DNA of 64,000 nt from Candidatus Uhrbacteria bacterium (GTDB lineage Bacteria; Patescibacteriota; Patescibacteriia; UBA9934; GWF2-40-263): the NCBI GenBank assembly GCA_016844925.1, contig JAERTI010000036.1, positions 11,053-75,052 on the forward strand. Reading direction: 5' to 3'. Both the position numbers and the translations under genes were made by a program. Positions 17,946 through 59,135 of this stretch are shown here, piece by piece. Position 1 is the stretch's first letter. Each line of letters begins with the position of its first letter. The notes beneath the pieces were generated by a model, which worked only from the letters and a program-made list of their open reading frames with translations, did not search any database and had not been told where the DNA came from.

Positions 17946-18099
17946 CACGCACACCCCACCCCCGATACGCATCGGGGATTTTTTTTGTGCAAAATAAATA
18001 CCCGCACTTGCTTCCGAAGAAGTGTAGTGCGGGGGAGTGGAGCCACGCGCTGGCTACACACTCAGTGCCCGACGTGCATCAGGCGGGTGTCCTGTCGGA

Positions 18100-19209
18100 C
18101 TAGGCCGCGAAGCGGTTCTCGCTCGCCGCCTCGACCATCTTGGCCACCTGCAGGCCGTAGGGCTTGTCGGTGTCCAGGTTGGTCGGGAAGAAGGACACGG
18201 CGTTCTCGCCGCCGTTGGTGTCGATCTCCTCGATCAGGCCGGCCGTGTGGCTGGCGCGGGTGATGCGGGGCAGCTCGACGTCCTCGCCCAGGTCGGCCAC
18301 CTTCACGCCGAAGGCGCTGTGGGGGATGAGCTGGATGGTGTCGTCGTCGATGCCGACGCTCACGGGGATCGCGGCGTACTCGCCGTCGTCCAGGGACAGG
18401 ATGAAGTTGTCGGTGTTGTCGACGCCCAGGGAGATCTCGGTCACGTTGCCCGGGGTCTGGAACTCGGCCCAGGCCAGCTCGTCCATCTCGCCGGAGAGGT
18501 ACTTGCTGATCTGCTCGGCGCTGACCACGTTCACCACGTTGGTGCCGTAGACGGACTCGAGCAGGAAGCGCGGGGAGTTGGCGTTGACCAGGGTGTTGTC
18601 GACGGTGTCGACGAAGTCGGAGCCGATGACCTTGTAGGACTCCGTGTCCTTGGAGATCATGCCGACCTTGGTGCGGACGCTGTCGCGGCCGATCAGGAGC
18701 AGCGTGGTCGCCTCGTTCTCGGAGCCGACGATGGTGCGGGTCTCGGAGTCGACGTACTGGTCGAAGCGCGCCTGCATGGCCCGCTCGGTCCAGCTGCCCT
18801 CGTAGTCCTGGCCCCAGACGCCGAAGTCGACGTTCTGGTCCATGGCGGTCACGGCGAAGCCGTAGCGCCAGTTCTTGCCCTTGTAGCGGCTCAGCAGCTC
18901 GGTCTTGTCGAGCGTGGCCTGGGCCTCGGTCAGGGACATGCCCTCGGGGGTGTCGACGATCGCGACGATCTGCCGCTTGTGGTCGCTGGCCTTGCTGTCC
19001 TCGCTCAGCTTGAGCGAGTTGTCGCCGTCGGCCACGATGGCCACGGGGTTCAGGCCCTGGTCCTGGATGAAGTCGGTCACGTGGTCGAACTGGCCCTCGA
19101 CGGCCAGGAGCTTGACGCCGCTCTTGTCCTCGTAGGTGTCGAGCTTGAGCGAGCCGATCTTCGGCTTCGTGGCGGCGAGGAGGGCGAGCGAGATGACGAT
19201 CCGGTTCAT
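18100..19209 (-). CDS. GC-rich secreted hypothetical protein (~369 aa) with signal peptide MNRIVISLALLAATKPKIGS
   Basis: ORF track 18100..19287, trimmed to the Met before the signal peptide. Promoter TTGACA..TATAGT at ~19300-19330 with a ~120-nt 5' UTR. The + strand 402-aa ORF 18037..19245 is antisense junk (G/V/D/H-rich). Confidence 0.6.
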   Translation of the reverse strand: MNRIVISLALLAATKPKIGSLKLDTYEDKSGVKLLAVEGQFDHVTDFIQDQGLNPVAIVADGDNSLKLSEDSKASDHKRQIVAIVDTPEGMSLTEAQATLDKTELLSRYKGKNWRYGFAVTAMDQNVDFGVWGQDYEGSWTERAMQARFDQYVDSETRTIVGSENEATTLLLIGRDSVRTKVGMISKDTESYKVIGSDFVDTVDNTLVNANSPRFLLESVYGTNVVNVVSAEQISKYLSGEMDELAWAEFQTPGNVTEISLGVDNTDNFILSLDDGEYAAIPVSVGIDDDTIQLIPHSAFGVKVADLGEDVELPRITRASHTAGLIEEIDTNGGENAVSFFPTNLDTDKPYGLQVAKMVEAASENRFAA

Positions 19210-19471
19210 TGGGAGTTCTCCAGTGTCCGCAGGCGGTTTGGTTGATGCCTTTGGACGTCTCTGCACACCAGTGAACTGCACTGGCACAGTGTTGCCCGTA
19301 TTCGGGACGAACGGCGGGAATACTATAGGAACCCTCTTAGGGTGTCAAGAGATCTGCCCGGGGATAAGTATTTAGCCCTTGTTTTAGGAAAAAAATCGGT
19401 TTTTCTCAGTAAAGTGATTAAGTGCAACGTTTTTACCTCAACGATGAAAAGCGATGCTACAATAAACTTCT

Positions 19472-21883: not shown

Positions 21884-21972
21884 GCCCCACACCCCCGCTT
21901 ACGCAAGGCGGGTTTTTTGATTGACAACCATGTAAGAAACAACTACGTTGACCACCCTGAACAGGAGAAAGG

Positions 21973-22296
21973 ATGGATCGGTTACAAGAGCTGGATGACC
22001 AGCTCTACGCACTTCACCATGACCATGTGCTTCACGGTGCCACGCTCGTCGAACACCACGAAGACGGCACGCAGTCGCGTGGACGTATCAGCAGCACAGG
22101 ACACGGATACGGTGAACTCGGACTATGGTGGCACAACGAAGATGATCGTCATCGACAGGCCTGCCTGAGTCACAGCAGCTGGAACTTCTCCAGAACGGGG
22201 AACGAGATTCGTTTCAGTAGGACTGGCCCTGACCGGAGAAGCTTCGACATCCCCCCCGGGGACGTCAACCTCTACGTCATCACCATCGCGGACTAG
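21973..22296 (+). CDS. GC-rich small hypothetical protein (107 aa, His-rich)
   Basis: TTGACA-N17-TACGTT immediately after the upstream terminator; AGGAGA RBS; terminator ending TTTTTTCTTTT at ~22300-22330. Confidence 0.45.
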   Translation: MDRLQELDDQLYALHHDHVLHGATLVEHHEDGTQSRGRISSTGHGYGELGLWWHNEDDRHRQACLSHSSWNFSRTGNEIRFSRTGPDRRSFDIPPGDVNLYVITIAD

Positions 22297-22391
22297 CACC
22301 ACGCCCAATACGGGGCGTTTTTTCTTTTATTCGCTTCCTGCTGGCGCTCTTTGCTTTCACCCGGTACAGTGATTTTAAGGAGGTAACACAC

Positions 22392-23306: not shown

Positions 23307-23385
23307 CCCCCCTGAGGGTCTTTTTCTTTTTTGTTTAATCCCTGCCAACCAAACAAAAAGCCCTCGCTTTCGCGAAGGCTTTCTG

Positions 23386-25236: not shown

Positions 25237-25313
25237 TGGCGGCCCGAGTAGGATTCGAACCTACGACCTTGGGCTTAGAAGTCCCCTGCTCTATCCAGCT
25301 GAGCTATCGGGCC
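25237..25313 (-). tRNA. tRNA-Arg (anticodon TCT), CCA encoded
   Basis: Acceptor GGCCCGA/TCGGGCC, D-arm GCTC..GAGC, anticodon loop CTTCTAA, T-arm GTAGG-TTCGAAT-CCTAC. The anticodon stem has two non-Watson-Crick pairs. Confidence 0.65.
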
Positions 25314-25398: not shown

Positions 25399-26076
25399 CT
25401 AGTGGCTCCGGACGATGTTGCCGACGAGCACGCGCTGCTCGCCGATCGGCTGGATCTCCTTCAGCTTCCGCTTGGCGAACCAGTCGATGTCCTTGTTGGT
25501 GCGTCCCGACAGGCTGATCAGGGGAATCCCGACCTCCGTGGAAGACTGGGCCGTCTTGATTGCCCTGTCGAGCAGGGCCGTACCAACACCATGCTCACGC
25601 CACTGGGGCCGCACGATCAGGTGCTGGATGTAGAAGTAGGCACCGCAGCGCCCCAGCTCCCGCACCACCGATGCCATCACCTGGGCTCCGACCTGTTCGT
25701 TGAGCTGATCCATGGCCAGCGGGCGTAGCTCGATCACCCCTACGGGCATCGGATGACCAGAGCTCACCACGAAGGCTACGAGGGTCTGAGCGCAGCGCAT
25801 GCGGAGAGCCTCGATGGTCTCGCGCTCGGCGCGCCGCTCGGTCCAGAGCTGCTGGACCACCCCCCCGCTGCACCAGGAACAGATCTCGTTCGCCGGCTTG
25901 CTGAGGAAGTCACGCTTGCATCCGCTGCAGCGCCACTGCTCGCCCCACGGCGCACCGCGGCGCCCCTCGACGATCATCTCCGCCAGACCCGGCACCAGAC
26001 GCTCGACACCCTGGCCCAGCCTGGCGACGTGCACTCGCTGCTCCACTCCTTCCCTCGCTACCGTGGCTACTTGCAT
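25399..26076 (-). CDS. GC-rich GNAT-family N-acetyltransferase with N-terminal Cys-rich (zinc-ribbon-like) region
   Basis: GNAT motif A (..YIQHLIVRPQWREHGVGTALLDRAI..); CSGCK...CSWCSGG; GGAGG-N5-ATG. Confidence 0.6.
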   Translation of the reverse strand: MQVATVAREGVEQRVHVARLGQGVERLVPGLAEMIVEGRRGAPWGEQWRCSGCKRDFLSKPANEICSWCSGGVVQQLWTERRAERETIEALRMRCAQTLVAFVVSSGHPMPVGVIELRPLAMDQLNEQVGAQVMASVVRELGRCGAYFYIQHLIVRPQWREHGVGTALLDRAIKTAQSSTEVGIPLISLSGRTNKDIDWFAKRKLKEIQPIGEQRVLVGNIVRSH

Positions 26077-26169: not shown

Positions 26170-27117
26170 TCAGGACGTTTTATTTTCTTCCTTAGGTTTT
26201 TTCCGAGCCCGATCATGAAACTTCTTATGCACCTCTTTCATCTTTTTGTTCGTGATGTGGGTATACACCTGGGTCGTCGTAATCGATGCGTGCCCAAGCA
26301 GGGACTGCACAGAACGAATATCCGCCCCTCCCATGAGCAGGTCCGTGGCAAACGTGTGCCGGAGCGTGTGTGGTGTAATGCGTTTGGTAATGCCCGCCTG
26401 CTTTGCATAGCGCTCCACGAGCCGCTGTACTGATCGCGACGTAAGCCCGCCTGTCTTTCCACGACCAGCTCGCGCCTTGTCGTGACAGATGAATAGGTAC
26501 TCAGACGTATCTCTTCGCTTCGCTAGATACTCTTTCAGTGCTTCTTTGGCTGTACTGGAGAGATACACGGCTCGCAACTTACCCCCCTTACCCCTCACCG
26601 TGAACTCATCTCGCTTCAAATTAATCTGTTCGATCTTCAGGTTCGAGAGCTCACTCACGCGCAAGCCCGTAGAGAAGAGCAGCTCGAGAATGGCTCGATC
26701 ACGCAACGCCACAAGATCTTTCCCAGCCGGCGCCGCTAACAATCGATCCAACTCCTCGACCTCCAAGAACGACACCTCTCGCTGCTCCTGCTTTGCGAGC
26801 TCGATCTTCTCCGGAGCCAGGGAAGTGATGTCTTCGCGCGCCAGGTATTTTAGAAATGATCGTAGAGCGATCAGGTGATAATTCTGCGTCGACTTCTTGA
26901 GCGTCTTTCCATCGCGACCAGCTACTTTCCGGTTCAGCCAAAGACGATACTTATGAATCATCTCGCTGGTAATCTCCTTGGGTTCTGGCCCCTTAGCCCA
27001 CTGAGAAAACCGTCGCAAATAAAAATGATAGTTGCGAATCGTCTTCTCCGTCCTCCCTCGCTCAACCTCTAGATATTCGAGGAACTTCGTGATCAATTTG
27101 TCGATCGTCGTGGGCAT
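26170..27117 (-). CDS. Xer-type tyrosine site-specific recombinase (XerC/XerD-like)
   Basis: C-terminal catalytic region ..HTLRHTFATDLLMGGADIRSVQSLLGHASITTTQVYTHI..; N-terminal core-binding domain. Start trimmed to MPTTIDKLI. Confidence 0.8.
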   Translation of the reverse strand: MPTTIDKLITKFLEYLEVERGRTEKTIRNYHFYLRRFSQWAKGPEPKEITSEMIHKYRLWLNRKVAGRDGKTLKKSTQNYHLIALRSFLKYLAREDITSLAPEKIELAKQEQREVSFLEVEELDRLLAAPAGKDLVALRDRAILELLFSTGLRVSELSNLKIEQINLKRDEFTVRGKGGKLRAVYLSSTAKEALKEYLAKRRDTSEYLFICHDKARAGRGKTGGLTSRSVQRLVERYAKQAGITKRITPHTLRHTFATDLLMGGADIRSVQSLLGHASITTTQVYTHITNKKMKEVHKKFHDRARKKPKEENKTS

Positions 27118-27568
27118 ATCTGCTCCTAGTATAACATCGGGGCCGTGTGATACCATGCACTCCACTATGGGAGCCGTCCTGACCCGCAGACTCCTGGCCG
27201 CCGCAACGATCTTCACCATGATCGCTTGCGGTTTTGTTTTCAGCACATCACAGAGCTGTCTGGCAGATTCCGGTGACTCAGGCTTTATCTGCACGGCCGA
27301 GGCGCTCTCAGCCCCAACAACCTGGATGGCCTCAGCAAATCACATGGCAATCCAGGCAAAGGAACTGTTCACGGTGGCAATCGTCGTGTTTACCGCCGCC
27401 ATCCTCATCACCCAAGGGCGCCGGTGGCAGCCGCCGCATACCTCACTCTGGATTGAGCGGAGAGCCCCCATACCAAACCACACATTCATCCCGCATTTAT
27501 CAGCCTCTCACGGTGGGTAGCTATCTCCCCTGAAACGCAGAACCTCTTGATTCACATGAACAGACTTT

Positions 27569-28360
27569 ATGGATAAACACCCACATACGACCCATCACAC
27601 AAAATCACTTTTTGACATCATCCCTGCCAAGCAGGCCTTCTGGCTCGGGTTTGGTACTGCCATTCTCTCCATCGGAACCCTCGGCTTCATCCTTCTTGGA
27701 AGCTGTGTCCTCCAGGGAGACTGCGCGGCTAGCGTTGTCTTCGAAGACGATGCTGAGGATGCAGATGACGACGATTACGCACCATCTGCCGCGGACCTTG
27801 CTGCAGCAGGTGCCCCAACCGTTCCAACAGCCCAAGGTGTTCCCGCTGTAGACGACGGTGATTACATCCGCGGAGACGTAGACGCTCCTATCACCATCAT
27901 TGAGTACTCCGACTTTGAGTGTCCCTACTGTGAGCGATTCCACCCAACCATGGAACAGGTCATGGAGGAGTACGATGGCCAGGTCCGTTGGGTCCTCCGC
28001 AACTTCCCACTTTCCTTCCACCCAAATGCTGAGGACGCTGGTGTCGCAGCTGAGTGTGCCGGACAGCAGGGCAAGTTCTGGGAGTACGGTGACGAGCTCT
28101 TTGCCAACCGCGCAAGCCTCGGTGAAGACTACTACGTTGAACTCGCTGGTGACTTCGATCTCAATATCAGTGAATTCACCACCTGCTACGAGGGAGACGA
28201 GGCTCGTTCCAAAGTACGTGCACAGGCCACAGGTGGTGCTGCTGCAGGTGTCACAGGAACCCCAGGAAGCTTCATCATCGATGAGGACGGTAACGCCACC
28301 CCAATCAAGGGAGCGCTGCCATACTCCTCCGTTGCTGCTGCGATCGACGCCATGCTCTAA
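27569..28360 (+). CDS. DsbA-family thiol:disulfide oxidoreductase, membrane anchored (CPYC active site)
   Basis: ..IIEYSDFECPYCERFHP..; hairpin terminator at ~28365-28395. Confidence 0.75.
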   Translation: MDKHPHTTHHTKSLFDIIPAKQAFWLGFGTAILSIGTLGFILLGSCVLQGDCAASVVFEDDAEDADDDDYAPSAADLAAAGAPTVPTAQGVPAVDDGDYIRGDVDAPITIIEYSDFECPYCERFHPTMEQVMEEYDGQVRWVLRNFPLSFHPNAEDAGVAAECAGQQGKFWEYGDELFANRASLGEDYYVELAGDFDLNISEFTTCYEGDEARSKVRAQATGGAAAGVTGTPGSFIIDEDGNATPIKGALPYSSVAAAIDAML

Positions 28361-28428
28361 GTTGATTCAAAACAGGCCCCATGGGCCTGTTTTTGTTTTC
28401 CCGCACCCATCCCTTATACTTGGAACAT

Positions 28429-30585
28429 ATGAAAAAACTATCCTATCTACTTCTTTTTTTGTTCTCTATTTTCTCGCTCTCCGCCTCACCGACGGCCGCC
28501 ATCAGCTCAAGTGAGCAGTGGTTCCAGCTTGAAAAAGGTTCATCCTCGGTCATCTACTACGACGTTGATGAGGGCCGAGATATGCTTGTTGCCGTGGGTC
28601 TAAGTGGAGAACTTATTTACTCCATGGACGATGGCGACACATGGACAGACGTCAACGAAACATCAAACACGCTCTACGCTGTTACTGAAAGTGACTTCGG
28701 TATTGTCGCCGCAGGTGAAAACGGCACAGTCGTCACCGCAGAAGATAACGAGTCCTGGAATGTTCAAACTATTGGTAGCGGGACTCTGGACATCATGGAT
28801 GTTGATTGTTCTGGAGACTACTGTGTTCTCGTCACAGACAGCGGCTATTACTACTACTCACGAGATGCTGGAGAGAGCTGGTCCACCGTCATCAGCCCTC
28901 CTTCATCAAGTAACTATCAAGGTGTGCACGTTGGCGCCTCAGGAACATTCTGGGTCTCAGGAGCCAATGGAGAACTCAAGCAAAGCTCCGCTGCCACCAT
29001 CACATCTTTCACAGAACAAACGAGTGGTTCTTCCCAGGTGCTTCTGGACGTCCACTTCCTCTCAGACGAACAGACCGGTTGGGCTGTTGGAGGGAGCGGA
29101 ACGATTGTTACTACCACAGATGGTGGAGACAACTGGACGGACGCATCTGTCGGATCAACCAACTGGTATCACATTGCAAGCAACCCCTCTGACGAAGATC
29201 ATCTCTTCATTCTTGGTGAAAGCGACATCATGGAGTCCACTGACGGCGGAAGTAGCTGGGACTCTGTCACACTTAGCTCATCCATGGCATCAGGCCTATT
29301 CTCCGGATCGATTGTTAATGGATCTCTCATTGCCGCAGGTGTCAGCAGCTCAGGTGGTGTGATCATCACCGATGACACAACGGCTCCATCAGCACCAACG
29401 AATCTTTCCACAAGCCCAAGCTCTCCATCTGCAAACCAAACGCCAACCTTGAGCTGGACCGATAGCACAGACGACAAATCCGGCATCGAGGGGTACTACG
29501 TCTATCTAGACGGCACCATGATCGACGGTGTCGAAAACGGATCTGGCGACGAGTCCTACACGTTCTCATCCCTGAGCGAAGGTGAGCACACGCTCGGCGT
29601 GATCGCCGCAGACTACGGAGAGAACGAATCTTCCATGGCGACCGTCACCTACCGCGTCGACAAGACGGGGCCAACGATTGGATCGCTCTCATCAACAACC
29701 GTTGCACCTGGCGAATCGACTATCACCAGCACCGTCACAGATGATTACGGAACCGTTGATGAATGTAACGCACATGTTGATGGGGCCACTTCTCAGGAAT
29801 ACCTACTTGAACGAGATACGCTACACATCACATTCACTCTTGAGGAAGTCGGGGAGTTCAACGTAAACATTGATTGCACCGATAGCTTTGGCAACACCAG
29901 CAACGCCAGTGAGATGATCACTGTGAGCGAGGAAACCAGCTCAGAGTCAGAAAGTTCAGAGTCGAGTGAATCGAGCTCTAGCTCATCCTCGGAAAGCAGC
30001 GAGTCGAGCTCATCTGAGTCTTCCAACGGCGGAAGCTCGAGCCCAACAGAGACCAGCGCTCCGGCCGTCGATGACTCTTCCAGCGCGGTGAGTAGTCTCT
30101 CTGAACTTTCCACGGGATCACTCATCAAGTTCGCCTGTGAAGAAGGGGCGCTCGTGAACGATCCTTGCACTGCGGTCTACTACTACGGCGCGGATGAAAA
30201 ACGTCACGCCTTCCCAAACAGCAAAGTCTACTTCACCTGGTATGAAGATTTCGACGACGTGATCGTTGTCACTCAGGACGTCATCTCTGACATTACCCTG
30301 GGCTCTAACGTGACCTACCGTCCAGGTGTCCGCATGGTGAAGTTCCTTTCTTGGAACACAGTCTACACTGTCAGCGCCGGGGGAGAGCTCCGCGCGGTTC
30401 CATCTGAAGAAGTCGCCATCGCCATGTACGGAGACGACTGGAACCAGCAGATCGATGACATCTCTGACGCGTTCTTCTCGAACTATTCGTTTGGCGACGA
30501 CCTAGAAGATGAGAACGATTACGATGCCGATGATGCCTACGGGGAGGTAGACGACATTGATGACGATATCGAGGCAAAATCTTAG
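28429..30585 (+). CDS. Secreted BNR/sialidase-like repeat beta-propeller protein with FN3-like domain and Ser/Glu-rich low-complexity linker
   Basis: Repeated S.D.G.(T/S)W motifs (SMDDGDTW, SRDAGESW, TTDGGDNW, STDGGSSW); signal peptide MKKLSYLLLFLFSIFSLSASPTAA; terminator ACGGGCCGAAAGGCCTG+TTTTTT. Confidence 0.7.
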   Translation: MKKLSYLLLFLFSIFSLSASPTAAISSSEQWFQLEKGSSSVIYYDVDEGRDMLVAVGLSGELIYSMDDGDTWTDVNETSNTLYAVTESDFGIVAAGENGTVVTAEDNESWNVQTIGSGTLDIMDVDCSGDYCVLVTDSGYYYYSRDAGESWSTVISPPSSSNYQGVHVGASGTFWVSGANGELKQSSAATITSFTEQTSGSSQVLLDVHFLSDEQTGWAVGGSGTIVTTTDGGDNWTDASVGSTNWYHIASNPSDEDHLFILGESDIMESTDGGSSWDSVTLSSSMASGLFSGSIVNGSLIAAGVSSSGGVIITDDTTAPSAPTNLSTSPSSPSANQTPTLSWTDSTDDKSGIEGYYVYLDGTMIDGVENGSGDESYTFSSLSEGEHTLGVIAADYGENESSMATVTYRVDKTGPTIGSLSSTTVAPGESTITSTVTDDYGTVDECNAHVDGATSQEYLLERDTLHITFTLEEVGEFNVNIDCTDSFGNTSNASEMITVSEETSSESESSESSESSSSSSSESSESSSSESSNGGSSSPTETSAPAVDDSSSAVSSLSELSTGSLIKFACEEGALVNDPCTAVYYYGADEKRHAFPNSKVYFTWYEDFDDVIVVTQDVISDITLGSNVTYRPGVRMVKFLSWNTVYTVSAGGELRAVPSEEVAIAMYGDDWNQQIDDISDAFFSNYSFGDDLEDENDYDADDAYGEVDDIDDDIEAKS

Positions 30586-30675
30586 TAAGCAAAAACGGGC
30601 CGAAAGGCCTGTTTTTTGTTGACGCACGTATGGGCGCATGCAAAGATGCCGGCGCACATTGAAAGTGGAGTACTC

Positions 30676-31590
30676 ATGTCAGCTACTGGCACCCAGGTCG
30701 AGCTCGGCCGCCAGATCATCGGTCGCATCTCTCAGGACCGACAAGGCCATATTTCCGAGCAGCAGCTCGAGGTGGCCAGGGCCTACCTGGTGGGCAACTA
30801 CCTCCCGCTGGGCGAGAACGACTTCCTCGCTGTCCCCACGCCGACGGGCAAGATCATCAGCCTGGTCGTGAACGAGAAGATGGAGCTCATGATCTGCATC
30901 GAGACCACCCCCGGCAACGAGTCGACCCGGCAGATGTGGCACGGCCCCCTCGGGAACCTGAAGCAACTGGAGACCACCCCCACCAGTGCGACCGAGTCGG
31001 ATAGCGACGATCCTGACAACGAACAGCTCCCTCTGCCACAGATGCCCCAGCGCTTCGAGACCGGTGGAGAGATCTTCGAAGTCCGCTGGACCGACCCACA
31101 GACCCCGGGACTCAACACGGTCTACTCGCACACACGCGGGGACGAGACGCTGATCGATGGCATGTACGTCATGATCACCGACCTGGCCGTGACGGACAAG
31201 CACCTCATCTTCACCTTCCACCTCGACGTCCTGGGCACGTCCACACAATGGCAGGTCAAGAAGACGCAGATCACCGTCGTGAATCGTGGAACGGGTGACC
31301 ACCGTATCGAGGAAGAGGGGGAGTTGATCCAGGCCCGATGGGCCTTGCAACCTCCGTTCAGGGAGCTGCACTCCACCGGCACACGCATTGTTGTGGTGAA
31401 GCGCCACCCCTACGGTGGCAAGCATGCCACGCTCGGCGGCGTCTCGATCTACACCAACCGTGGACACATCTTCCACCGACTCCGCGGTGACTTCTCCACG
31501 CTCCACTACGCCTGCGGCGCCCTCTGGACCTGGCGCCCCGCACCCGGCGGCGCGGTCCTGACGCGCTACGACCTCCCCAACAGCGACTGA
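30676..31590 (+). CDS. GC-rich hypothetical protein (305 aa)
   Basis: TTGACG-N17-AAAGAT placed immediately after the upstream host terminator T-run; AAGTGGAG-N5-ATG. The ORF track start at 30616 is probably too far upstream. Confidence 0.5.
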   Translation: MSATGTQVELGRQIIGRISQDRQGHISEQQLEVARAYLVGNYLPLGENDFLAVPTPTGKIISLVVNEKMELMICIETTPGNESTRQMWHGPLGNLKQLETTPTSATESDSDDPDNEQLPLPQMPQRFETGGEIFEVRWTDPQTPGLNTVYSHTRGDETLIDGMYVMITDLAVTDKHLIFTFHLDVLGTSTQWQVKKTQITVVNRGTGDHRIEEEGELIQARWALQPPFRELHSTGTRIVVVKRHPYGGKHATLGGVSIYTNRGHIFHRLRGDFSTLHYACGALWTWRPAPGGAVLTRYDLPNSD

Positions 31591-31647
31591 ATGCTGGCGG
31601 GGCTTTTTCTTTTTCAAATAAAAATCCGCACCAAGCGTGGTGCGGGA

Positions 31648-32445
31648 TCAGCTGCTCGCCGTCGTGATCTCCCAGCGTACATGGGGATCTTCTGGCGGCG
31701 TCAGGTCGAACGTGTCGGACAGGTAGAAGATGTGATCGATGATGAGGGCAGCCTGGTGAGGTGGCGCGCCCACTGTGGCGAGGGTTAAGACCCTCAGCTC
31801 ATCCTGCACGATCTTCCGTTCGCGCCTGCGAAGCTCCGGCTGGAACCGCTTCATAAGCACGTCACGGATGTGCGTGAAGAAGGGGTGTGCCTTGGACAGA
31901 AGCGACACAGCTGCGACGGACTTCTGACCACTCAGCGCCAACGTCGCCGTCACCACCTCACAGTCCTCCCTAGGAAGGAGAAGGAGCGGGACAGCTCCGG
32001 GGTATAGATCCACGAATGAACCTTGGTCACGACAACGCTCAACGAGGCGCCTCAGTGCCTCATCGAACTTCTGGTAGAACTCCTCACCGAGCGCCGCATC
32101 GCCCAGAATCTCCTGGAGGCAGTCCGAAGCCGCCATGAGTACCGAGGCGACATCGCGACCAATCTCGCTCGCATGTTTGAATGCCTCATCCGTGGGTGCG
32201 TCCAGGAGCAAGTACGCCCCCTCATCAGCATCCTCGTAGCCAGCGTCGTATCCGAACGTGTACGTTCCAGCCGGTGCATCACGCACCCACCGGTCAGAGA
32301 ACGCCTCTACCAGGGCAGGGGGAATGCCTGACTCACAGGTCGGCGTCATGTTTAGTGTCAGGCGTGCCTGACTCTCTGTGCGCGTCACCTCAGCAACCAG
32401 CACGACTCCCGTCTCCGACATCTCAACGGTAGGAAGGTCAGCCAT
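31648..32445 (-). CDS. GC-rich hypothetical protein (266 aa), convergent with the previous gene
   Basis: TTGACG-N17-TAGCGT plus GAGGAGG-N5-ATG (MADLPTVE..); hairpin CCGCACCACGCTTGGTGCGG in the convergent terminator region. Confidence 0.5.
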   Translation of the reverse strand: MADLPTVEMSETGVVLVAEVTRTESQARLTLNMTPTCESGIPPALVEAFSDRWVRDAPAGTYTFGYDAGYEDADEGAYLLLDAPTDEAFKHASEIGRDVASVLMAASDCLQEILGDAALGEEFYQKFDEALRRLVERCRDQGSFVDLYPGAVPLLLLPREDCEVVTATLALSGQKSVAAVSLLSKAHPFFTHIRDVLMKRFQPELRRRERKIVQDELRVLTLATVGAPPHQAALIIDHIFYLSDTFDLTPPEDPHVRWEITTASS

Positions 32446-32527
32446 TATCACCTCCTCGGATCCACACGCTACCGACCACAACCCACTTCGTCAACCAAAA
32501 AACCGCGTCTGAACGCGGTTTCCATCC

Positions 32528-33745
32528 TCAGCTCTGCGCATGATACTGCGAGAGCGCATTGATACCAAGGCTTGTAAACGCCGCAATAAAGAACGACGCG
32601 GATATGGAAAAGTAACTTGTTACCACCATCAGGAAGACCATCATCAGCACGCGCCCAATAGAGAGCGAAATCTCTCGAAGCACTGTATATTCATCCACGT
32701 AGTGCCCACTATCAGCTGCTTGCTCGTACATGAGTGTATCCATGGGTGTGCGCAGCATAATGGAACCAAGGTTGTGAAATGTGGAAGCGGCAAACACACC
32801 TACAACCGTTTCAACCAACCCTTTCCAGAGCCAACCAAGCGCGTAAACTCCCGTTCCCATCTTTAGCATGCGTACAGGAGATTTTTTATCTGCCTGCTTT
32901 CCAATAAACACTTCGAGTACCAGCGAGATGGTCACAATAACCGCTGTGAACGCTCCCACATTCAAGTAATCACCTTCAAACACCGAAAAGAGGAAGATGG
33001 GCCAGACGGCAAACCCAACGATGTTCTCTGCCCCGTAGGCCATCATAGAATAGGCCATGCCTCGATACCTCTTGGAGAACAGCTTTTTAAAACTCTCAAT
33101 GAACGTAAACTCGTACGCAACATTATATGGAGGCAGGAAGAACAGGGGCACAATCGATGCAGCAGCGATGAGCAACCCCAGAGCAAAGTTCATGCCATAG
33201 CCAAACCGCGTGATAATAAACCCAGCGCCAATCGGTGCAAGCACACTTATAAGACGCTGTGCCGCATAAAAAACACCAATCTGTTTTCCCCGATGCTTCT
33301 TTGAAGAAAACTCTGCAAAGTCGATGTGAAAGGGAGACCAATAAAAGACACTTACGATTGTCAGCCCCACCATACCAAGCCCCATCAGAGCATAGGGATC
33401 AATCGCACTCCCTGTATCAAGAAGATAGAACGTGAGATAAAAAAACATGAGCCCCATCACACCAAAAACCATCGAAGGGACTAAGCCTGTTTTTGAAAAA
33501 ATCTTTGCCCCCCAAATAAAGAACGGGATCTTTATGACAAAGTTAATGGCATACCAAGCAAGCACCAGTGTGATGGACATCCCAAAAAACTCGTAGAGAA
33601 AGATGGGGAGAAACATTCCCGTTACTGATGAAGCCGCGAATCCCAGTAAACGATTCGTCATCAGTGCAGGAAGTCCTCCCACATGTGAGAGAGAGTGACG
33701 ATGTGTACGAAACGGATGAGATGTTGCGTGATGTGTACGTGGCAT
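32528..33745 (-). CDS. MFS-type transporter (about 12 TM)
   Basis: The ORF-track entry 32528..34372 is over-extended and overlaps rpsO. It was trimmed to MPRTHHATSH.., after which continuous TM helices follow. Terminator GGAAACCGCGTTCAGACGCGG+TTTTTT on the minus strand. Confidence 0.6.
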   Translation of the reverse strand: MPRTHHATSHPFRTHRHSLSHVGGLPALMTNRLLGFAASSVTGMFLPIFLYEFFGMSITLVLAWYAINFVIKIPFFIWGAKIFSKTGLVPSMVFGVMGLMFFYLTFYLLDTGSAIDPYALMGLGMVGLTIVSVFYWSPFHIDFAEFSSKKHRGKQIGVFYAAQRLISVLAPIGAGFIITRFGYGMNFALGLLIAAASIVPLFFLPPYNVAYEFTFIESFKKLFSKRYRGMAYSMMAYGAENIVGFAVWPIFLFSVFEGDYLNVGAFTAVIVTISLVLEVFIGKQADKKSPVRMLKMGTGVYALGWLWKGLVETVVGVFAASTFHNLGSIMLRTPMDTLMYEQAADSGHYVDEYTVLREISLSIGRVLMMVFLMVVTSYFSISASFFIAAFTSLGINALSQYHAQS

Positions 33746-33941
33746 AACGCTTAGTAGTATAGCAGTGATCGTGCACAGCCCCGTCCACAGTCCTGTGTGT
33801 TCCAAAAGTGAACTCAATAGCCACCGCCCCTTGACCAAAACCCATCTTTTCGCTACGATTCGGCCGTAAATACTAACCAGGACGACGTCTTGGATGAGGA
33901 ATGAGCCCCTCTTCTCGGATATCGCCATGTAATCAAGAACT

Positions 33942-34205
33942 ATGCTCACAGCCAAGAAGAAGCAGAACATCATTAAGAAGTACCGCACGCACGACTCAGA
34001 CACTGGGTCACCGCAGGTCCAGATCGCTATTTTGACCGCTGAGATCGCCGACCTCACCATCCACTTGCGCGAGCACAAGAAGGACAACTCCTCTCGCCGT
34101 GGTTTGATCAGCAAAGTCAACGAGCGCCGTAAGCTTATGAAGTATTTGGAGCGCGAAGATCTCGCTGCTCTTACAAAGCTAAAGGAAGCTCTCAAAATAA
34201 GGTAA
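33942..34205 (+). CDS. rpsO: 30S ribosomal protein S15
   Basis: ..DTGSPQVQIAILTAEIADLTIHLREHKKDNSSRRGLISKVNERRKLMKYL.. is a canonical S15. Confidence 0.9.
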   Translation: MLTAKKKQNIIKKYRTHDSDTGSPQVQIAILTAEIADLTIHLREHKKDNSSRRGLISKVNERRKLMKYLEREDLAALTKLKEALKIR

Positions 34206-34319
34206 AATGAATACCCTGCCAGACCGGCAGGGATTTCGCTTTTTTTAACCAGGCACACCCACGCATTGTTCGGTCGAGACAAGCACCGTATTGTGCCTGA
34301 CATTTTTTCAAAAACACGT

Positions 34320-34979
34320 ATGTTTAAGCACAAAGACCAGCGTGTCGGCGTTTTTATCGACACGCAAAACATGTACTACAGCGCGAGAAATCTTTTTAAG
34401 CGCAAAGTGAACTTTAAAAATATCGTCGAGGACGCCGTTGCCGGACGGAAGCTCATCCGAGCCATGGCCTACGTCGTCGCTACAGAGGACGGCCAAGAGA
34501 AGCCTTTCTTTGACGCCCTTGAGAAGGCAGGAATCGAAACCATCGCAAAAGACCTTCAGGAATATGCCTCCGGAGCAAAGAAGGCGGACTGGGATGTGGG
34601 ACTCGCCATCGATGTCGTGCAAATGCTCGACACTTTGGACGTCGTTGTCCTTGCTTCCGGAGATGGGGACTTCCTCCCTCTTGTAAACTATGTTCACTCT
34701 CGAGGCAGAATGATAGAGGTCATGGCCTTTGGTCAGACCACCTCAGGAAAACTTCGTACACTTGCCAATGACTACACGGACCTTTCAGGAAACAAGCGCC
34801 GATACCTCATCGGACCAAAACTTGACGGGCCAAAAGCTAGCGCAAAAAAGAGCCGAACCATCGCCCAAGAGGAACGCGAGGTGCCAGAAAAGGAAACTGG
34901 TGACACAGGGGGATTCTTCATGGAGATCGAGGATGTAGACGACCAGGAAGAAAGCCGCACACGTCGACTGGAATTCTAG
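34320..34979 (+). CDS. NYN/LabA-like PIN-fold domain protein with acidic C-terminal tail
   Basis: ..RVGVFIDTQNMYYSARNL..; ..VVVLASGDGDFLPLVNYV.. Confidence 0.65.
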   Translation: MFKHKDQRVGVFIDTQNMYYSARNLFKRKVNFKNIVEDAVAGRKLIRAMAYVVATEDGQEKPFFDALEKAGIETIAKDLQEYASGAKKADWDVGLAIDVVQMLDTLDVVVLASGDGDFLPLVNYVHSRGRMIEVMAFGQTTSGKLRTLANDYTDLSGNKRRYLIGPKLDGPKASAKKSRTIAQEEREVPEKETGDTGGFFMEIEDVDDQEESRTRRLEF

Positions 34980-38759: not shown

Positions 38760-39150
38760 TGTAAGTCGTTCTTTCACACCAAACTCTTGGGAGGTTTCCC
38801 GAAATCACGTTGACAGCTTGTCGGCGGGTGCCCCACGCCCGTGTGCTTTAGGGAAACGTCTTACCGACTTTACTGTTCAGTGAACTGTAAAAACGAAAAC
38901 AAAAACGAACATTCCTAGGTTAGCCAGCACTATGACGACCTCGGTCGTTCGCAGGTAAAACCAATGAATGGTAAAGCGGAGAGTTTCTTACCGGTCCGTG
39001 TTCGTGCCCAAAGGGCGTTGAGTTGTGTGACAGCAAAACTGTCATAGAACCCAGCGCCTAGACAGGCCAACATCTAAACCGGTCCTACGTGAGGGCCACA
39101 TCTGAAGTAATCTTCATTAAAGCAGATGACATGGCCCTCTTCTTCTTTTT
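38760..39150 (+). ncRNA. Candidate structured non-coding RNA or long leader (~390 nt), with its own promoter (TTGACC-N17-TATTAT at 38727-38755) and a strong intrinsic terminator (GAGGGCCACATCTG...CAGATGACATGGCCCTC + TTCTTCTTTTT at ~39080-39145)
   Basis: No protein-like ORF. By eye it has no RNase P, tmRNA or SRP signatures; family unknown. Confidence 0.35.
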
Positions 39151-48362: not shown

Positions 48363-48478
48363 GACGACCTCCTTTGTGACAAGTGTGGCCAGCATGGTGC
48401 AAACGCGGGGGGAAGTCAAGAAAGAAAAAAGCCGCCGGAGTGATTCCAGGCGGCAGCGGAGTTGTGTCCGCACGTTGT

Positions 48479-49879
48479 CTAGGGCCGATCGATCTGGGAG
48501 GCGAGCTCCTTGACCGCGGCCACGATAGGCTCCGTTCGGGGGTTGCCCGAGAGCTCTCGGTTGAAGCGCACGCGCTTGCGCGGCTTGTTGCGCTCGAGTA
48601 CACGCCCCATGGTCAGGAACTGCCAGGCGCGATCGCGATCCCTCTCGCTGATCCGCAGTCGCCTGAAGTGCGGCTGACACAGACGCTTGAAGTCCGCATC
48701 GCTGACCCACGAACCTGTGAACGTGTTCGAGACGCTCTGCTCGGGCTGCAGCACACCGAACACCAGCCATACCTGCACCGCCGCCAAGTTGACCCTACCG
48801 GTCACGTAGGCGCCGATCTTCAGCTGACGGTGATCGAACGGTGGCAACACCGGCGGCGTAGCCTTGGCCTTGCGGGCCGGCGGCGGCTTGGGTGCTGGCG
48901 GCGGATCCGGTTCCGGCTCCTCCTCGTCCATCTGGCTCATCTGCTGCTCGAGGCGTGCGAACTCGATGAACTCACGATCCTCTCGATGACGATGATTGGC
49001 ATCGATCAGGTCACTGCTAAACGAGACCACACAGTCCTTCAGATCTTGCCCCTTCTCCCGCATGGAGTAGATCGCCAGCAGGTCGCCGAGCGCCTTGAGC
49101 GAGAGCGAGGGAAGCAGTCGGTGGTGCTGAATGAGCCCCTGAGCACTGTCGCTATCGAGCTCACCATCGAGCATGACGAGCACGTCGTCCAGCCGGTGGG
49201 CGAAGTGATCCATCAACTTCACGGTGGTCTCAACCGTGAGCGTGCGGCGCACCGACAGGGCACTGATGGCCAGCAGCTTGCACATGGGCAACGGCTGTGT
49301 CAGCCGGCTCATGAGTGCCACAAGGCGCTCGACGACTCCACGCGTCAGCCCCTCAGTGAGCACCGCTCCCATGGGCGCGTCTTCGCGATCGATCACCAGC
49401 GGCTCACAGCGCATGTGCGTGCCGATGAGCCAGAACAGCTCGGCGGGACGCTCCCAGTAGGCACGCTGCTGCGGCACCTTCTCCTTGGACCGACTCGAGA
49501 CACCCGGCGTGAGTGCATCGTAGATGGCCTTAAGGCTGGGCACCACATCCTCAGCACTGGCGAAACGAACACCGTAGTGCCAGGCCATGCCCAGCAGGTG
49601 AATGTGTCGCGGTGCGCGCTTGCGCGTACGCCCCTGGTTGATGGCGTCCACGCACTGCGCGAACGCTGCTTCCCTGGAGAGCGTACTGTCCTGAGACATC
49701 TTCACGGACGTCAGCGCGTGCAGCGCCGCGTTCGTGGCCACCACGAGCTCCGGGATGATCCCGAAGTCGACATAGACGGCCGGCACCTGAGAAGATCGCA
49801 GATCCGCGAGCTCTCTGGTGGCCTGGGGAGCCTTCAAGCTCCCGAGCTCCATGAGCCCTGAATGGATCATCTCCATGAG
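48479..49879 (-). CDS. GC-rich hypothetical protein (~466 aa) with Pro-rich acidic segment
   Basis: TTGACA-N17-TAGTCT plus CAGGAGG-N7-ATG (MEMIHSGL..); terminator GCCGCC..GGCGGC+TTTTTTCTTTCTT. The + strand 492-aa ORF 48383..49861 is rejected as antisense. Confidence 0.5.
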   Translation of the reverse strand, partial: LMEMIHSGLMELGSLKAPQATRELADLRSSQVPAVYVDFGIIPELVVATNAALHALTSVKMSQDSTLSREAAFAQCVDAINQGRTRKRAPRHIHLLGMAWHYGVRFASAEDVVPSLKAIYDALTPGVSSRSKEKVPQQRAYWERPAELFWLIGTHMRCEPLVIDREDAPMGAVLTEGLTRGVVERLVALMSRLTQPLPMCKLLAISALSVRRTLTVETTVKLMDHFAHRLDDVLVMLDGELDSDSAQGLIQHHRLLPSLSLKALGDLLAIYSMREKGQDLKDCVVSFSSDLIDANHRHREDREFIEFARLEQQMSQMDEEEPEPDPPPAPKPPPARKAKATPPVLPPFDHRQLKIGAYVTGRVNLAAVQVWLVFGVLQPEQSVSNTFTGSWVSDADFKRLCQPHFRRLRISERDRDRAWQFLTMGRVLERNKPRKRVRFNRELSGNPRTEPIVAAVKELASQIDRP

Positions 49880-49939
49880 ATTTCCTCCTGTCTGGGTCGA
49901 TAGGATATCTAAACCAGACGGTAGACTAGCCATTCATTG

Positions 49940-49977
49940 ACATTCTGTCAATCCATTGTTAACGTGCGTCCTCGCGG
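49940..49977. promoter_or_regulatory. Back-to-back divergent promoters whose -35 hexamers overlap in the palindrome TTGACATTCTGTCAA
   Basis: Read directly; serves 48479..49879 (-) and 49978..51025 (+). Confidence 0.5.
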
Positions 49978-51025
49978 ATTTTCCCGGGAGAAAGGGAGGA
50001 AAAACGTGGTAAACCGCTCCTACGCTTACCCAGCGCATGATGCACTGCGGCTCGCGTGGATGGCCTATCAACCGCGCGGACCCGTCCATGAGGACGACCG
50101 AATCCTGTACCTCGCCGGCGAAGAGAACCTGGAGCTTCCAGGTTACCGCCAGCTCGGCTACAGACCTGACCAGCTCCTTACCTGCGAACATGACCCTCGC
50201 CGCTTCCCTCACGTCCTGGCCAACGGCCAGGGAGTGAATGTGGCTCAGGGCAACATCGCCGATGCCATCGCTGCTCTCCAACAGTGGGAGTGGCCACGCT
50301 TGCGTGGCGCCTGGCTGGACTTCGACGGCAACTCCCATACCTACACCGACGAGCTCCTCAAGCTCGCGGCCGTGCTCCCATCACCCCGGGGTTCTACCCT
50401 GGGTGTGACGAGCTTCGCCGCGCGTGACAACGAGGCTCTAGTGCAGGGAACGGTGAACACCTGCAAGTTCCTTTCCGGACTCGAGAACCTCAGTCAATTC
50501 TTGCGCGAGTACGGAACACAGCTCAGGCAGTACGAACATCTACTGCGCTTCATTCGCCACGGCGAGTCGACCCCTACTTCGCACTTCCAACGCGAGATGG
50601 GGCTCCTCTGGTGGCTGGTGCTCATGTTCGGCTCGGTAGACCTCCCCAAGGGCGAGCGCTACTACCGCACCGACGGCGCTTTCTTGGATCGCTCTGCCAG
50701 CATCCTTGACGGACTCACCCGTAAGGTGGAAGGTGCTCTGAGCACCGGCTCACAGAGTCGCATGGTCTGGGAATTCGATCCCGCCCTGCGCGACCTGCTC
50801 GCTGGACGAAAGGTCAGCGTGTGGATCACGCACCTGGAGCGCTATGCGTTCTGGTCGCAGAACCGCCAGCCCATGCGAACCTGGTTCGTAAAGGTTCAGC
50901 CGGTCATCGAGGGCACCTTCGCGCCCACGATGCAGGAACTGTTGGTGCAAGTTTGGAAACTCGCGTGCCGAAGCCCGCTCATCTACATCGATGAGCAGGG
51001 TGGACGCGTGCAAATCGACCCCTAG
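49978..51025 (+). CDS. GC-rich hypothetical protein (~349 aa), GTG start
   Basis: GGGAGG-N6-GTG; ORF-track start 49937. No confident domain. Confidence 0.45.
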
Positions 51026-51040
51026 TGTAAGGAGGAAGCG

Positions 51041-51793: not shown

Positions 51794-51935
51794 ACGGCCA
51801 ACTTCCGACCGCTACGACAGCGGTCGTTTTCTTTTACTTCACAGGGGAAACCTCTTGACAAAGCGCTTTTTTCCGCCTAGGCTCCTCCTCTGGTAACCTT
51901 TCGTTACCGTTCATTCCCTTTCAGGAGGAGAACCC

Positions 51936-53852: not shown

Positions 53853-53927
53853 AAGGTACCCCCACCATCACGCGGTGGGGATTTTTTGTTGTAAGAAAAA
53901 ACCGACCGCGTAACGGTCGGGGACGTA

Positions 53928-55160: not shown

Positions 55161-55204
55161 TGGTACCTCCTCTCAGTGAAAAAACTGAGGGTTGACCCTA
55201 CGTC

Positions 55205-55262
55205 TGCAGCGCCTGGATGTCAAGGTTTTAGCCTTGACAGAGCCCAAACGCACTGTTAACTT
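55205..55262. promoter_or_regulatory. Divergent back-to-back promoters (..GATGTCAAGG TTTTAG CCTTGACAGAG..) forming an imperfect inverted repeat
   Basis: Read directly. Confidence 0.45.
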
Positions 55263-55331
55263 GTGCCTCTTCTGGGCGTTTTACAAAAAACCCCAGATTT
55301 AGGCTCTTTCCCCCCTACCGGAGGTAGCTCC

Positions 55332-56873: not shown

Positions 56874-56996
56874 CACGCGGGTGAGGCACCCCTCGCCCCT
56901 TTTCTCAAGCAACTCATTCATCCTGAATGTGTTGCTGGAGCTAAAGACACGCTCCTTTCATTGTCATCTACCACTTCCCACACTGGAGAGAAGCCC

Positions 56997-59021: not shown

Positions 59022-59135
59022 AGCCGGTCGAGCCACAAAGCACGACCAACCCCCGACAACGCAACGTCGGGGTTTTTTCATTGACAAAAACACCCAGGAC
59101 AGCTACCCTCCGGGCGTTATTTACTCCCATTTATT

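Follow-up and report, generated by a model that had tools for sequence, protein, structure and literature searches.

Two GC-rich genes between the terminators of a Candidatus Uhrbacteria contig: a probable natural hotspot of single-gene gain

How do two genes of conspicuously high GC content come to lie exactly between the terminators of their neighbors? In the stretch of a Candidatus Uhrbacteria contig analyzed here (64,000 nt, in the following the window), a convergent gene pair, gene 1 and gene 2, fills the space between the genes for a BNR-repeat protein and an MFS transporter (Table 1). The initial annotation had taken the pair for one foreign insert, docked so precisely onto the terminators of two host genes that it suggested either strong selection for compactness or designed placement. 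Both open reading frames were confirmed, and their GC content (0.633 for gene 1 and 0.604 for gene 2) is above that of the neighbors (BNR 0.52, MFS 0.47, DsbA 0.56). The outer terminators also fold as had been described, and their genes have matches in Pfam. The interpretation of the pair changes when the whole interval between the MFS and the DsbA gene, here called the slot, is compared with related genomes.

Table 1. Features of the slot and its surroundings, in window positions
Feature	Position	Strand	Remarks
XerC/D-type tyrosine recombinase	26170..27294	-	NCBIfam XerD 260 bits, XerC 254 bits, XerA-type 241 bits
DsbA-like thioredoxin-fold gene	27569..28360	+	Pfam Thioredoxin_4 and DSBA; conserved core gene at one slot edge
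DsbA terminator	28369..28393	+	Terminator scan; -17.1 kcal/mol, z -3.1
BNR-repeat protein	28381..30585	+	Pfam PSII_BNR
BNR terminator	30591..30617	+	-19.1 kcal/mol, z -3.2
Gene 1 promoter-like elements (putative)	30619..30647	+	Read from sequence: TTGACG, spacer 17 nt, TGcAAAGAT (AAAGAT 30642-30647)
Gene 1 cassette	30621..31603	+	~0.98 kb missing in every sister-population contig; blastn breakpoints 30620 and 31604 in L027-L037, empty-site alignment
Gene 1 CDS	30676-31590	+	304 aa
Antisense shadow ORF of gene 1	30679..31617	-	312 aa; exact sequence is P0023 in the NCBI and Logan protein collection
Gene 1 terminator	31575..31614	+	CCCC..GGGG hairpin overlapping the stop codon, then TTTTTCTTTTT; -13.9 kcal/mol, z -0.9, weaker
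Gene 2 terminator	31616..31645	-	Terminator scan; -17.2 kcal/mol, z -3.0; conserved in relatives
Gene 2 CDS	31648-32445	-	265 aa; same orientation as MFS, downstream of MFS
Gene 2 upstream elements (putative)	32452..32494	-	-35-like TTGACG 32494-32489; -10-like TAGCGT 32471-32466; ribosome-binding site GAGGAGG 32458-32452
MFS terminator	32497..32521	-	-15.5 kcal/mol, z -2.2; identical in relatives
MFS transporter	32528..33781	-	Pfam MFS_1; conserved core gene at the other slot edge

Distribution of gene 1 and gene 2

Thirteen contigs of a sister population, ~90% identical to the window, carry gene 2 in the same place. The counterpart of gene 2 on these contigs (P0003) has 91% amino acid identity, and dN/dS for gene 2 is 0.11. 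The GC content of the gene in relatives is 0.59 (GC3 in the window 0.695), and its upstream region shows few single-base differences from four relatives. Full-length homologues with 24-27% identity occupy the same slot in two further lineages, L048 and L069; only a handful of members of the family are known. Judged by these comparisons, gene 2 is resident cargo of the slot under purifying selection. For this reason, and because of the homologues in L048 and L069, the pair is not one foreign unit. The presence of the genes at this position with similar GC in relatives had been named in advance as a finding that would refute the initial view, and gene 2 shows it.

Gene 1 is the only presence/absence polymorphism of the two GC-rich genes between the window and the sister contigs. 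The site lacking gene 1 (CCTGTTTTTTGTTTTCAAATAAAAATCCGCACC) was read across in 13 contigs from several samples with ~88-93% nucleotide identity. Without the cassette the sequence is CCTGTTTTTTGTTTTCAAAT; here the BNR terminator leads straight to the gene 2 terminator, giving two back-to-back terminators. The edges of the cassette are ambiguous by up to ~9 nt because the junctions fall in T-runs. An insertion placed exactly between two terminators is thus borne out for the gene 1 cassette, and an empty site in related genomes, which had been proposed as a check, exists for gene 1 but not for gene 2. The center of the convergent pair, in turn, holds two separate terminators back to back and not a single shared one.

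The GC3 of gene 1 is 0.846, compared with about 0.51-0.61 in the core neighbors (MFS 0.51, DsbA 0.57) and 0.57 in the BNR gene. GC3 values of 0.74-0.92 are found in about one quarter of the window ORFs, so that high GC3 is not peculiar to this pair. On the whole, the initial interpretation is partly supported.

The gene 1 family is tiny: among 1.84 billion representatives, 13 members were detectable. The window holds one copy. The closest relative is only 44% identical, and the search for a donor yielded nothing nearer. A homologue with 44% identity lies in the same slot of another organism, L001, in the order DsbA C-terminus, terminator, homologue, terminator, MFS C-terminus. The flanks of L001 match those of the window in 28/30 aa of the DsbA tail and at 73% in the MFS tail, and the homologue is likewise trailed by a CCCCC..GGGGGG hairpin and a T-run. 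A relative of gene 1 in this place is also compatible with old residence and repeated loss. Homologues of gene 1 have a GC content above their surroundings in all six contexts (6/6), and family members at other loci belong to stable multi-gene neighborhoods.

The homologues favor the plus strand for gene 1. Public gene calls give the antisense ORF (P0023) instead, and the plus-strand product was not found in the NCBI/Logan protein collection. In the structure model of this product, a disordered acidic and proline-rich linker follows an alpha/beta domain at the N-terminus and leads to an all-beta domain at the C-terminus; the model of the gene 2 product is unreliable (pLDDT 51).

Neither protein had a hit in Pfam, NCBIfam, PHROGs or PADLOC; with the PADLOC models no hit was obtained at E <= 1 for the two proteins and P0001. 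Profile searches against PDB sequences gave nothing below E = 0.2, and tblastn against phage and plasmid collections, as well as scans of viral contigs, found no relatives of either protein. An anti-phage defense system (no meaningful match in PADLOC and PHROGs) and a phage, plasmid or viral origin were therefore rejected. The same applies to the possibility that the two genes are paralogues, as they have no mutual similarity, and to a functional pair, as they occur separately in other genomes. As far as sequence comparison reaches, gene 1 and gene 2 each stand for a very small protein family without recognizable relatives among known proteins. Their products are predicted to be cytoplasmic and are mutually unrelated, with the genes forming neither an operon nor a co-inherited pair.

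The slot in related genomes

A survey of 25 loci with MFS orthologues (52-80% identity) covered a clade that we infer to be Patescibacteria/Parcubacteria-like. The order rpsO-MFS-slot-DsbA-Xer is kept in those loci whose length allows it to be seen; DsbA orthologues (47-75% identity) adjoin the slot in 12 metagenome loci, and the Xer recombinase is the syntenic neighbor of DsbA across the clade, also where the slot is empty. The MFS ORF of the window (614 aa) is over-long; gene callers give 377-417 aa, and its start is uncertain. The slot is empty, with 63-146 bp and one bidirectional terminator, in L046, L057, L058, L059 and L068. Empty slots are found on deep as well as close branches of the MFS tree, including the sister of the window clade, and L046 is the closest outgroup. 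Elsewhere the cargo consists of ORFans, a DUF4147/MOFRL glycerate-kinase-like gene or a CAAX protease, with at least six different contents. No mobility gene was found inside the slot of the window (Pfam, NCBIfam, PHROGs and PADLOC for gene 1 and gene 2; Pfam and NCBIfam for the BNR protein, which matched only non-mobility families, namely PSII_BNR and, weakly and below cutoff, NCBIfam models). The same pair of core flanks, differing or empty content and the lack of a mobility gene inside characterize the slot, on this comparative evidence, as a hotspot.

The BNR gene, which had been regarded as a host gene, turned out to belong to the variable content. It is present in the sister population and missing from the slot in every other lineage surveyed. 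Among GTDB representative genomes the best match was a partial one, and a GTDB genome scan with the BNR protein returned no syntenic genome. In all probability translation starts at ATG 28429, which would give the protein a signal-peptide-like N-terminus (MKKLSYLLLFLFSIFSL). From its distribution the BNR gene is to be classed as older cargo of the slot and no core gene.

The five predicted terminators in Table 1 each have a GC-rich hairpin with a T-run directly behind it, after a stop codon. That of DsbA aligns with the AAACAG..CTGTTTTT terminators of L001, L046, L048, L068 and L069, and it corresponds, as an orthologue, to the one bidirectional terminator that takes up the slot where other lineages have it empty. 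The BNR terminator looks like a diverged copy of it: in the window, the motif GGCCTGTTTTTnGTTTTC occurs only at the DsbA and BNR terminators (2 matches, 0.19 expected). Comparison of the lineages shows an ancestral state in which the MFS and DsbA genes shared one bidirectional terminator.

Many hotspots of horizontal gene transfer contain no mobile elements and owe their diversification to recombination in the core genes on either side (Oliveira, Touchon, Cury & Rocha 2017, PMC5635113). Like these, the slot has the same core flanks with different accessory genes in relatives, no integrase or transposase inside, rapid turnover and strain-specific cargo of unknown function. Unlike these, it is tiny, with one to three single-gene units and 63-146 bp in the empty state, it belongs to a streamlined uncultured lineage, and no excess of recombination in the flanks was resolved in the comparison with L037. 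In this two-lineage comparison, identity goes from 68% to 100% along 21 kb without a clear breakpoint at the slot (sliding profile), and dS is 0.45 for gene 2, 0.21 for MFS and 0.30 for DsbA. The slot is an ordinary mobile-element-free hotspot, and nothing points to engineering.

Junctions and alternative explanations

Promoters had been proposed to abut the outer T-runs. A -35-like TTGACG is indeed found 1-2 nt past each of them (30619-30624, and 32494-32489 on the minus strand) and agrees with the consensus in 5/6 positions, but the -10 candidates (AAAGAT with an upstream TG, and TAGCGT) agree in 3/6 only, and a consensus promoter scan made no call in front of gene 1 or gene 2. The TT of the gene 1 hexamer falls on the host side of the cassette junction. 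Nor is this kind of docking special to the two genes. A T-run followed by TTGAC occurs nine times in the window, where 1.9 ± 1.3 are expected, and is also seen before genes carried by the sister population (21913, 26161(-), 11810(-) and 59073). The arrangement is non-random, but it is the house style of this genome. Two further small indels that set the window apart from relatives likewise lie just past terminators. The single-gene insertion at 21932-22326 is found just after a terminator and has end sequences unlike those of the gene 1 insertion. Neither inverted nor direct terminal repeats are present at 30621 and 31603, and no repeats of >=10 nt flank gene 1; the junctions show an imperfect 9-nt T-rich overlap (TTTTTTGTT at one edge, TTTTTCTTTTT at the opposite edge).

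An assembly chimera with a GC-rich foreign fragment, or an engineered insertion, is scarcely credible as the origin of this arrangement. The suspicion could be based on the tidy units that abut host terminators, each with a putative promoter, a ribosome-binding site, an ORF and a terminator, on a GGATCC just before the gene 2 ribosome-binding site, and on the missing plus-strand product of gene 1 in the public protein collection. However, GGATCC is a single-base variant of the GGGTCC found in all environmental relatives, so that a cloning scar was rejected, and the segment is contained in a public assembly, where it is annotated on the wrong strand. A Logan contig (SRR13374099_10117, 6,939 bp) is 100% identical to window positions 27679-34617 and includes both junctions, although the deposited assembly and this contig may go back to one set of reads. 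A chimera would moreover presuppose a fragment that already bears the flanks of the locus and overlaps in k-mers at either end. Designed placement is further contradicted by the slot being naturally empty or differently filled across the clade, by the gene 1 homologue in the same slot of an unrelated sample (L001), and by the window-wide terminator and TTGAC junctions. The source organisms are uncultured, environmental and known from metagenome assemblies only; many environmental metagenomes contain the locus and variants of it, plasmid and phage matches are absent, and an engineered construct was rejected on these grounds. It is also a remote idea that gene 1 is the cargo of an unrecognized small mobile element targeting terminator hairpins, be it IS200/IS605-like, palindrome-associated or a free-standing homing gene. 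The lack of target-site duplications and inverted repeats together with a hairpin near one end would suit the form of a single-strand transposon, and the insertion at 21932-22326 would be a second case. Free-standing accessory genes between conserved genes are known from compact phage genomes (T4-type homing endonuclease genes). Like the predicted units of the slot, each of them is self-contained, with a promoter, a ribosome-binding site, an ORF and a terminator, and lies in an intergenic gap, and their presence varies among otherwise collinear genomes; the slot differs in lying on a cellular chromosome with no detectable nuclease domain or evidence of homing. In gene 1 no signature of TnpA, TnpB, HNH, GIY-YIG or any other nuclease or transposase was found (Pfam, NCBIfam, PHROGs), the two insertions share no ends, and the single copy in the window, the 13 family members and their stable neighborhoods elsewhere do not fit the multi-copy spread of an active element. 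A transposon, IS or MITE was likewise rejected, for lack of a transposase, of terminal repeats, of a duplicated target and of further copies in the window.

It is very unlikely that the slot is a site-specific platform for cassette capture, integron-like or exploiting Xer, with recombination at the terminator-like hairpins. This would be consistent with the Xer-type recombinase that lies one gene from the slot clade-wide, with the hairpin bounds of each single-gene cargo and with the BNR terminator as a near copy of the DsbA terminator, which resembles the duplication of a recombination site. Integron cassette arrays, too, consist of single-gene units stacked at one site, with a hairpin after each and a tyrosine recombinase nearby. 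Yet the recombinase scores as XerC/D/XerA-type and reaches 140.7 bits with the integron-integrase model TIGR02249 (cutoff 265), in two fragments, and it stands equally beside empty slots, as a housekeeping gene would. Whereas an attC site is a 57-141-nt imperfect palindrome that carries R''/L''/L'/R' boxes and a core of the form GTTRRRY, the hairpins of the slot are predicted intrinsic terminators with GC stems of 20-27 nt and T-runs, its boundaries have no longer inverted repeats, GTTGACG does not fit the core, and repeats of >=10 nt around gene 1 are lacking. Integron cassettes lie next to the integrase and attI, are mostly promoterless and have one orientation; the units of the slot have putative expression signals of their own and run in both directions, gene 2 opposite to BNR and gene 1, and the core gene DsbA separates the recombinase from the cargo. 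An integron was thus rejected, since the recombinase fails the model and attC-like sites are absent. An Xer-exploiting element (IMEX) was rejected as well: no duplicated site is found at the insertion, where two dif-like sites of ~28 nt would be expected, although a highly degenerate dif site of this lineage may have escaped detection. We equally doubt that the terminator hairpins of convergent genes serve the neighboring Xer-type recombinase as recombination sites, with the DsbA/BNR near-duplicates as a footprint; if true, the slot would be a minimal integron-like platform for single-gene capture in Patescibacteria, and the GC-rich ORFans would form a pool of cassettes in circulation. That gene 1 is ancestral and was lost from the sister population by a clean deletion from T-run to T-run (replication slippage or microhomology) is unlikely. 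The L001 homologue between DsbA and MFS speaks for it, the imperfect T-rich repeat at the junctions suits a deletion as well as an insertion, and streamlined genomes have a deletion bias. However, with the empty L046 outgroup at least two losses would be needed instead of one gain, the GC3 of gene 1 has not drifted toward that of the host, and gene 1 has diverged from its L001 homologue far more than the flanks have. We infer the direction, a gain of gene 1 and not its loss from the sisters, by parsimony from this one empty outgroup and from composition.

Proposed serial gene gain and its meaning

Our preferred interpretation, to which we assign a probability of about 0.75, is that the MFS-DsbA interval is a natural hotspot that took up single genes one after the other, with no machinery of mobile elements. 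By parsimony, gene 2 would have been gained first, downstream of MFS. The secreted BNR protein would have followed downstream of DsbA, its terminator apparently being duplicated from the DsbA terminator. Gene 1 would be the latest gain, in the window lineage only, into the ~12 nt that separate the BNR terminator from that of gene 2. Every gained gene appears to be self-contained, with a ribosome-binding site and a terminator of its own.

The precise docking may be a matter of survivorship, since the 70-bp spacer is nearly all made up of two terminators and only an insertion between the hairpins spares both neighbors. It may also reflect streamlining deletions, which would trim spacers until a T-run abuts the next TTGAC box. 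Strong selection for compactness, one of the two initial proposals, is thus a reasonable part of the explanation. Entry of the genes probably occurred by illegitimate, microhomology-mediated joining in T-runs, and homologous recombination in the conserved flanking genes could account for spread and replacement; for the latter step the profile against L037, in which no breakpoint stands out at the slot, gives no direct support.

A GC-rich class of accessory genes departs from the usual pattern, in which mobile or newly acquired DNA has a higher AT content than the host. The high GC3 may come from a GC-richer donor pool, probably other Patescibacteria. For groundwater Patescibacteria, a study describes hundreds of islands and single-gene transfers, mostly from Patescibacteria to Patescibacteria (PMC12455944). 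They concern the same kind of organisms and habitats; in contrast to the present analysis, that study is a genome-wide survey by prediction tools, and in the passages searched neither this locus, its empty sites nor the two protein families were found mentioned.

The locus offers a clean and small example of how whole single-gene expression units can be gained between convergent terminators in very compact genomes with nothing disrupted. For a public metagenome-assembled genome, it dispels the suspicion that the sequence was engineered or misassembled. The public call on the wrong strand hides the real protein of gene 1 from the sequence databases. Beyond this single case, the analysis defines a GC3-rich class of accessory genes in this lineage, together with two very small protein families.

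Gene 1, gene 2 and the sister population

Both members of the convergent GC-rich ORF pair reported in the initial annotation were recovered, with a GC content above that of their neighbours. Pfam identifies the upstream neighbour as a BNR-repeat protein and the downstream one as an MFS transporter.

Genes and terminators in and around the slot between MFS and DsbA
Feature	Position	Strand	Properties
Gene 1	30676-31590	+	304 aa, GC 0.633, GC3 0.846
Gene 2	31648-32445	-	265 aa, GC 0.604, GC3 0.695
BNR gene			GC 0.52, GC3 0.57
MFS gene			GC 0.47, GC3 0.51
DsbA gene			GC 0.56, GC3 0.57
DsbA terminator	28369-28393
BNR terminator	30591-30617		hairpin and T-run, fold -19.1 kcal/mol
Gene 1 terminator	31575-31614		the gene's own, weaker
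Gene 2 terminator	31616-31645	-	hairpin and T-run, fold -17.2 kcal/mol
MFS terminator	32497-32521	-	hairpin and T-run, fold -15.5 kcal/mol

Thirteen metagenome contigs, drawn from several samples, encode P0003, the sister-population counterpart of gene 2 (91% identical). These contigs are collinear with the window, with DNA about 88-93% identical and a few small indels, and window positions 30621-31603 are absent from all of them. There the BNR terminator directly joins the gene 2 terminator (CCTGTTTTTTGTTTTCAAATAAAAATCCGCACC); the window reads CCTGTTTTTTGTT / GACGCAC...GGGGCTTTTTCT / TTTTCAAAT across the gene 1 site, slashes marking the breakpoints. Both breakpoints fall within T-runs and share only an imperfect overlap of 9 nt, and no terminal inverted or direct repeats were found at the segment ends. 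Gene 2 is in place in the sister contigs and 30621-31603 is missing; thus the presence/absence polymorphism concerns gene 1 only. The two genes had been taken for a pair of foreign composition, with an empty site to be sought in relatives: such a site exists for gene 1 but not for gene 2, which is resident. Upstream of it, relatives keep the terminator, TTGACG, TAGCGT and the ribosome-binding site, though GGATCC in the window is GGGTCC there; the gene's dN/dS of 0.11 means purifying selection.

A Logan contig from SRR13374099 has 100% identity to window 27679-34617; the assembly across the gene 1 locus is real. Twelve homologues align along the plus-strand gene 1 protein. The collection of 15 billion proteins holds, from NCBI and Logan, an antisense 312-aa shadow ORF (P0023, 30679-31617, minus strand) and not the plus-strand product; the public annotation has thus picked the wrong strand, and the true protein is absent because P0023 is reported in its place. 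Overlapping ORFs of about 400 aa also lie on both strands at 18037-19245(+) and 18100-19287(-), where the region has a GC of 0.66 and the plus-strand ORF a GC of 0.97 at the first codon position. Neither has a Pfam match, and this may be a further strand mis-call.

Content of the slot and other variable sites

When metagenomes were scanned with MFS as the query, 25 loci at 52-80% identity came up; wherever a locus was of sufficient length, mapping by tblastn showed the order rpsO-MFS-slot-DsbA-Xer to be conserved. The slot is empty in L046, L057, L058, L059 and L068, with 63-146 bp and one bidirectional terminator. It holds unrelated ORFans of 1.0-1.3 kb in L049/L055, L052 and L056, a DUF4147/MOFRL glycerate-kinase-like gene in L060, a gene 2 homologue (27% identical) plus a CAAX protease in L048, and a gene 2 homologue alone in L069. 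On the 1.3-kb Logan contig L001 a gene 1 homologue (44% identical) lies between the C-termini of MFS and DsbA, the latter identical to the window's in 28/30 aa; its slot has neither the BNR gene nor gene 2. On the MFS neighbour-joining tree, some empty slots branch deeply, and the sister group of the window clade has one as well. The simplest reading of these sequence comparisons is that the slot was ancestrally empty and would have gained genes repeatedly and independently.

Among the lineages surveyed the BNR gene was found in the window clade only; it is slot cargo too. The DsbA and BNR terminators resemble near-copies of one another, and the likeness extends to the 3' flank (CTGTTTTT(T)GTTTTC in relatives), which suggests duplication of the DsbA terminator on entry of the BNR gene. 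About 290 bp of this gene (29859-30147) are missing or replaced in the sister contigs L026, L027 and L029, where it is called as fragments or left uncalled; either the gene is decaying in some members of the population, or its repeat region was misassembled.

The recombinase near the slot is of the XerC/D type and does not pass the integron-integrase model; loci with an empty slot have it just as well. Around the cargo, searches for attC-like, dif-like or transposon features found none.

Other sites differ between the window and its relatives. A second single-gene insertion (21932-22326, 395 bp), directly after a host terminator and TTGACA box and missing from all relatives, carries the 107-aa ORFan P0026, which has a ribosome-binding site and a terminator of its own. 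Where the window has just 23 bp (23331-23353) between two terminators, several sister contigs, including L026-L029 and L036/L037, hold about 0.7 kb with a MazE/PIN toxin-antitoxin pair (L037 4223-4926). A GNAT acetyltransferase gene (25399-26076, minus strand, GC3 0.85) is present in most relatives but in L027 and L029 its place is taken by an unlike gene of 220 aa that runs in the opposite direction. The site, which adjoins tRNA-Arg (25237-25313), is another variable slot. The intergenic 300 nt at 38818-39117 are 100% identical to L037, with flanks at 73-89%; they gave no tRNA and, even at E <= 1, no Rfam match, and could represent a structured RNA not yet described or a regulatory region.

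Junctions, composition and proteins

Since a separate, weaker terminator belongs to gene 1, the centre of the pair consists of two terminators back to back and not of the single shared region first proposed. Each outer T-run is followed by G or GG and a TTGACG hexamer. The supposed docking of promoters on host T-runs is correct as far as TTGACG abuts both; yet the candidate -10 boxes AAAGAT and TAGCGT are poor matches, a consensus scan called no promoter at either TTGACG site, and the arrangement is window-wide. A T-run with TTGAC within a few bases occurs 9 times in the window versus 1.9 +/- 1.3 expected, mostly before genes, some of which relatives carry too. This junction style is not special to the pair. 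Neither is the GC-rich composition: GC3 is 0.74-0.92 in roughly one in four ORFs of the window, and relatives share several GC3-rich genes at a nucleotide identity of 92-93%. The GC3-rich ORFs include those of a block of about 10.7 kb (48383-59093; 61-67% GC, GC3 0.66-0.92), short of which the compared sister contigs stop. It has long ORFs on both strands and no Pfam matches for those tested, and has the appearance of a large accessory island rich in GC.

The two proteins are unrelated to each other, and both are without detectable known relatives: neither matched Pfam, NCBIfam, PHROGs or PADLOC, and no relatives were found in phage, plasmid or viral collections. Both genes are preceded by a plausible ribosome-binding site, and neither protein has an obvious signal peptide. 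Among 1.84 billion representatives, 13 members of the gene 1 family are detectable; the others lie in chromosomal neighbourhoods, and in 6/6 contexts the GC of the member exceeds that of the DNA around it. More distant homologues occur in an island inserted between tuf and fusA, in the ribosomal-protein/str region (L041-L045, e.g. L041 7362-12634), together with an AF_1845-family gene, a class III aminotransferase, an APH-type kinase and a methyltransferase. The AlphaFold model of gene 1 (pLDDT 72.9) predicts an alpha/beta domain at the N-terminus, then a disordered linker, and at the C-terminus an all-beta domain, for which the structure matches are weak and propeller-like. Of the gene 2 family just a handful of members are known, and its structure model is unreliable.

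Origin of the locus

Gene 1 would have entered by illegitimate joining within T-runs. In the 70-bp spacer the gap of about 12 nt between the two terminators would be the sole harmless target, and gene 1 may have survived there for that reason. Streamlining would hold terminators and TTGAC boxes abutted. That the sister lineage lost gene 1, rather than the window lineage gaining it, is unlikely. The initial annotation had also considered designed placement of the pair; neither this nor the reading as a foreign pair finds support. The locus is a natural, small gene-gain hotspot without mobile elements.

PMC5635113 describes hotspots devoid of mobile elements whose diversification comes from recombination in the flanking core genes, and the slot pattern fits these. 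The identity profile did not directly show recombination in the flanks. Gene transfer among Patescibacteria is reported as frequent in PMC12455944. The hotspot is an already known kind of feature, found here in a little-studied lineage.
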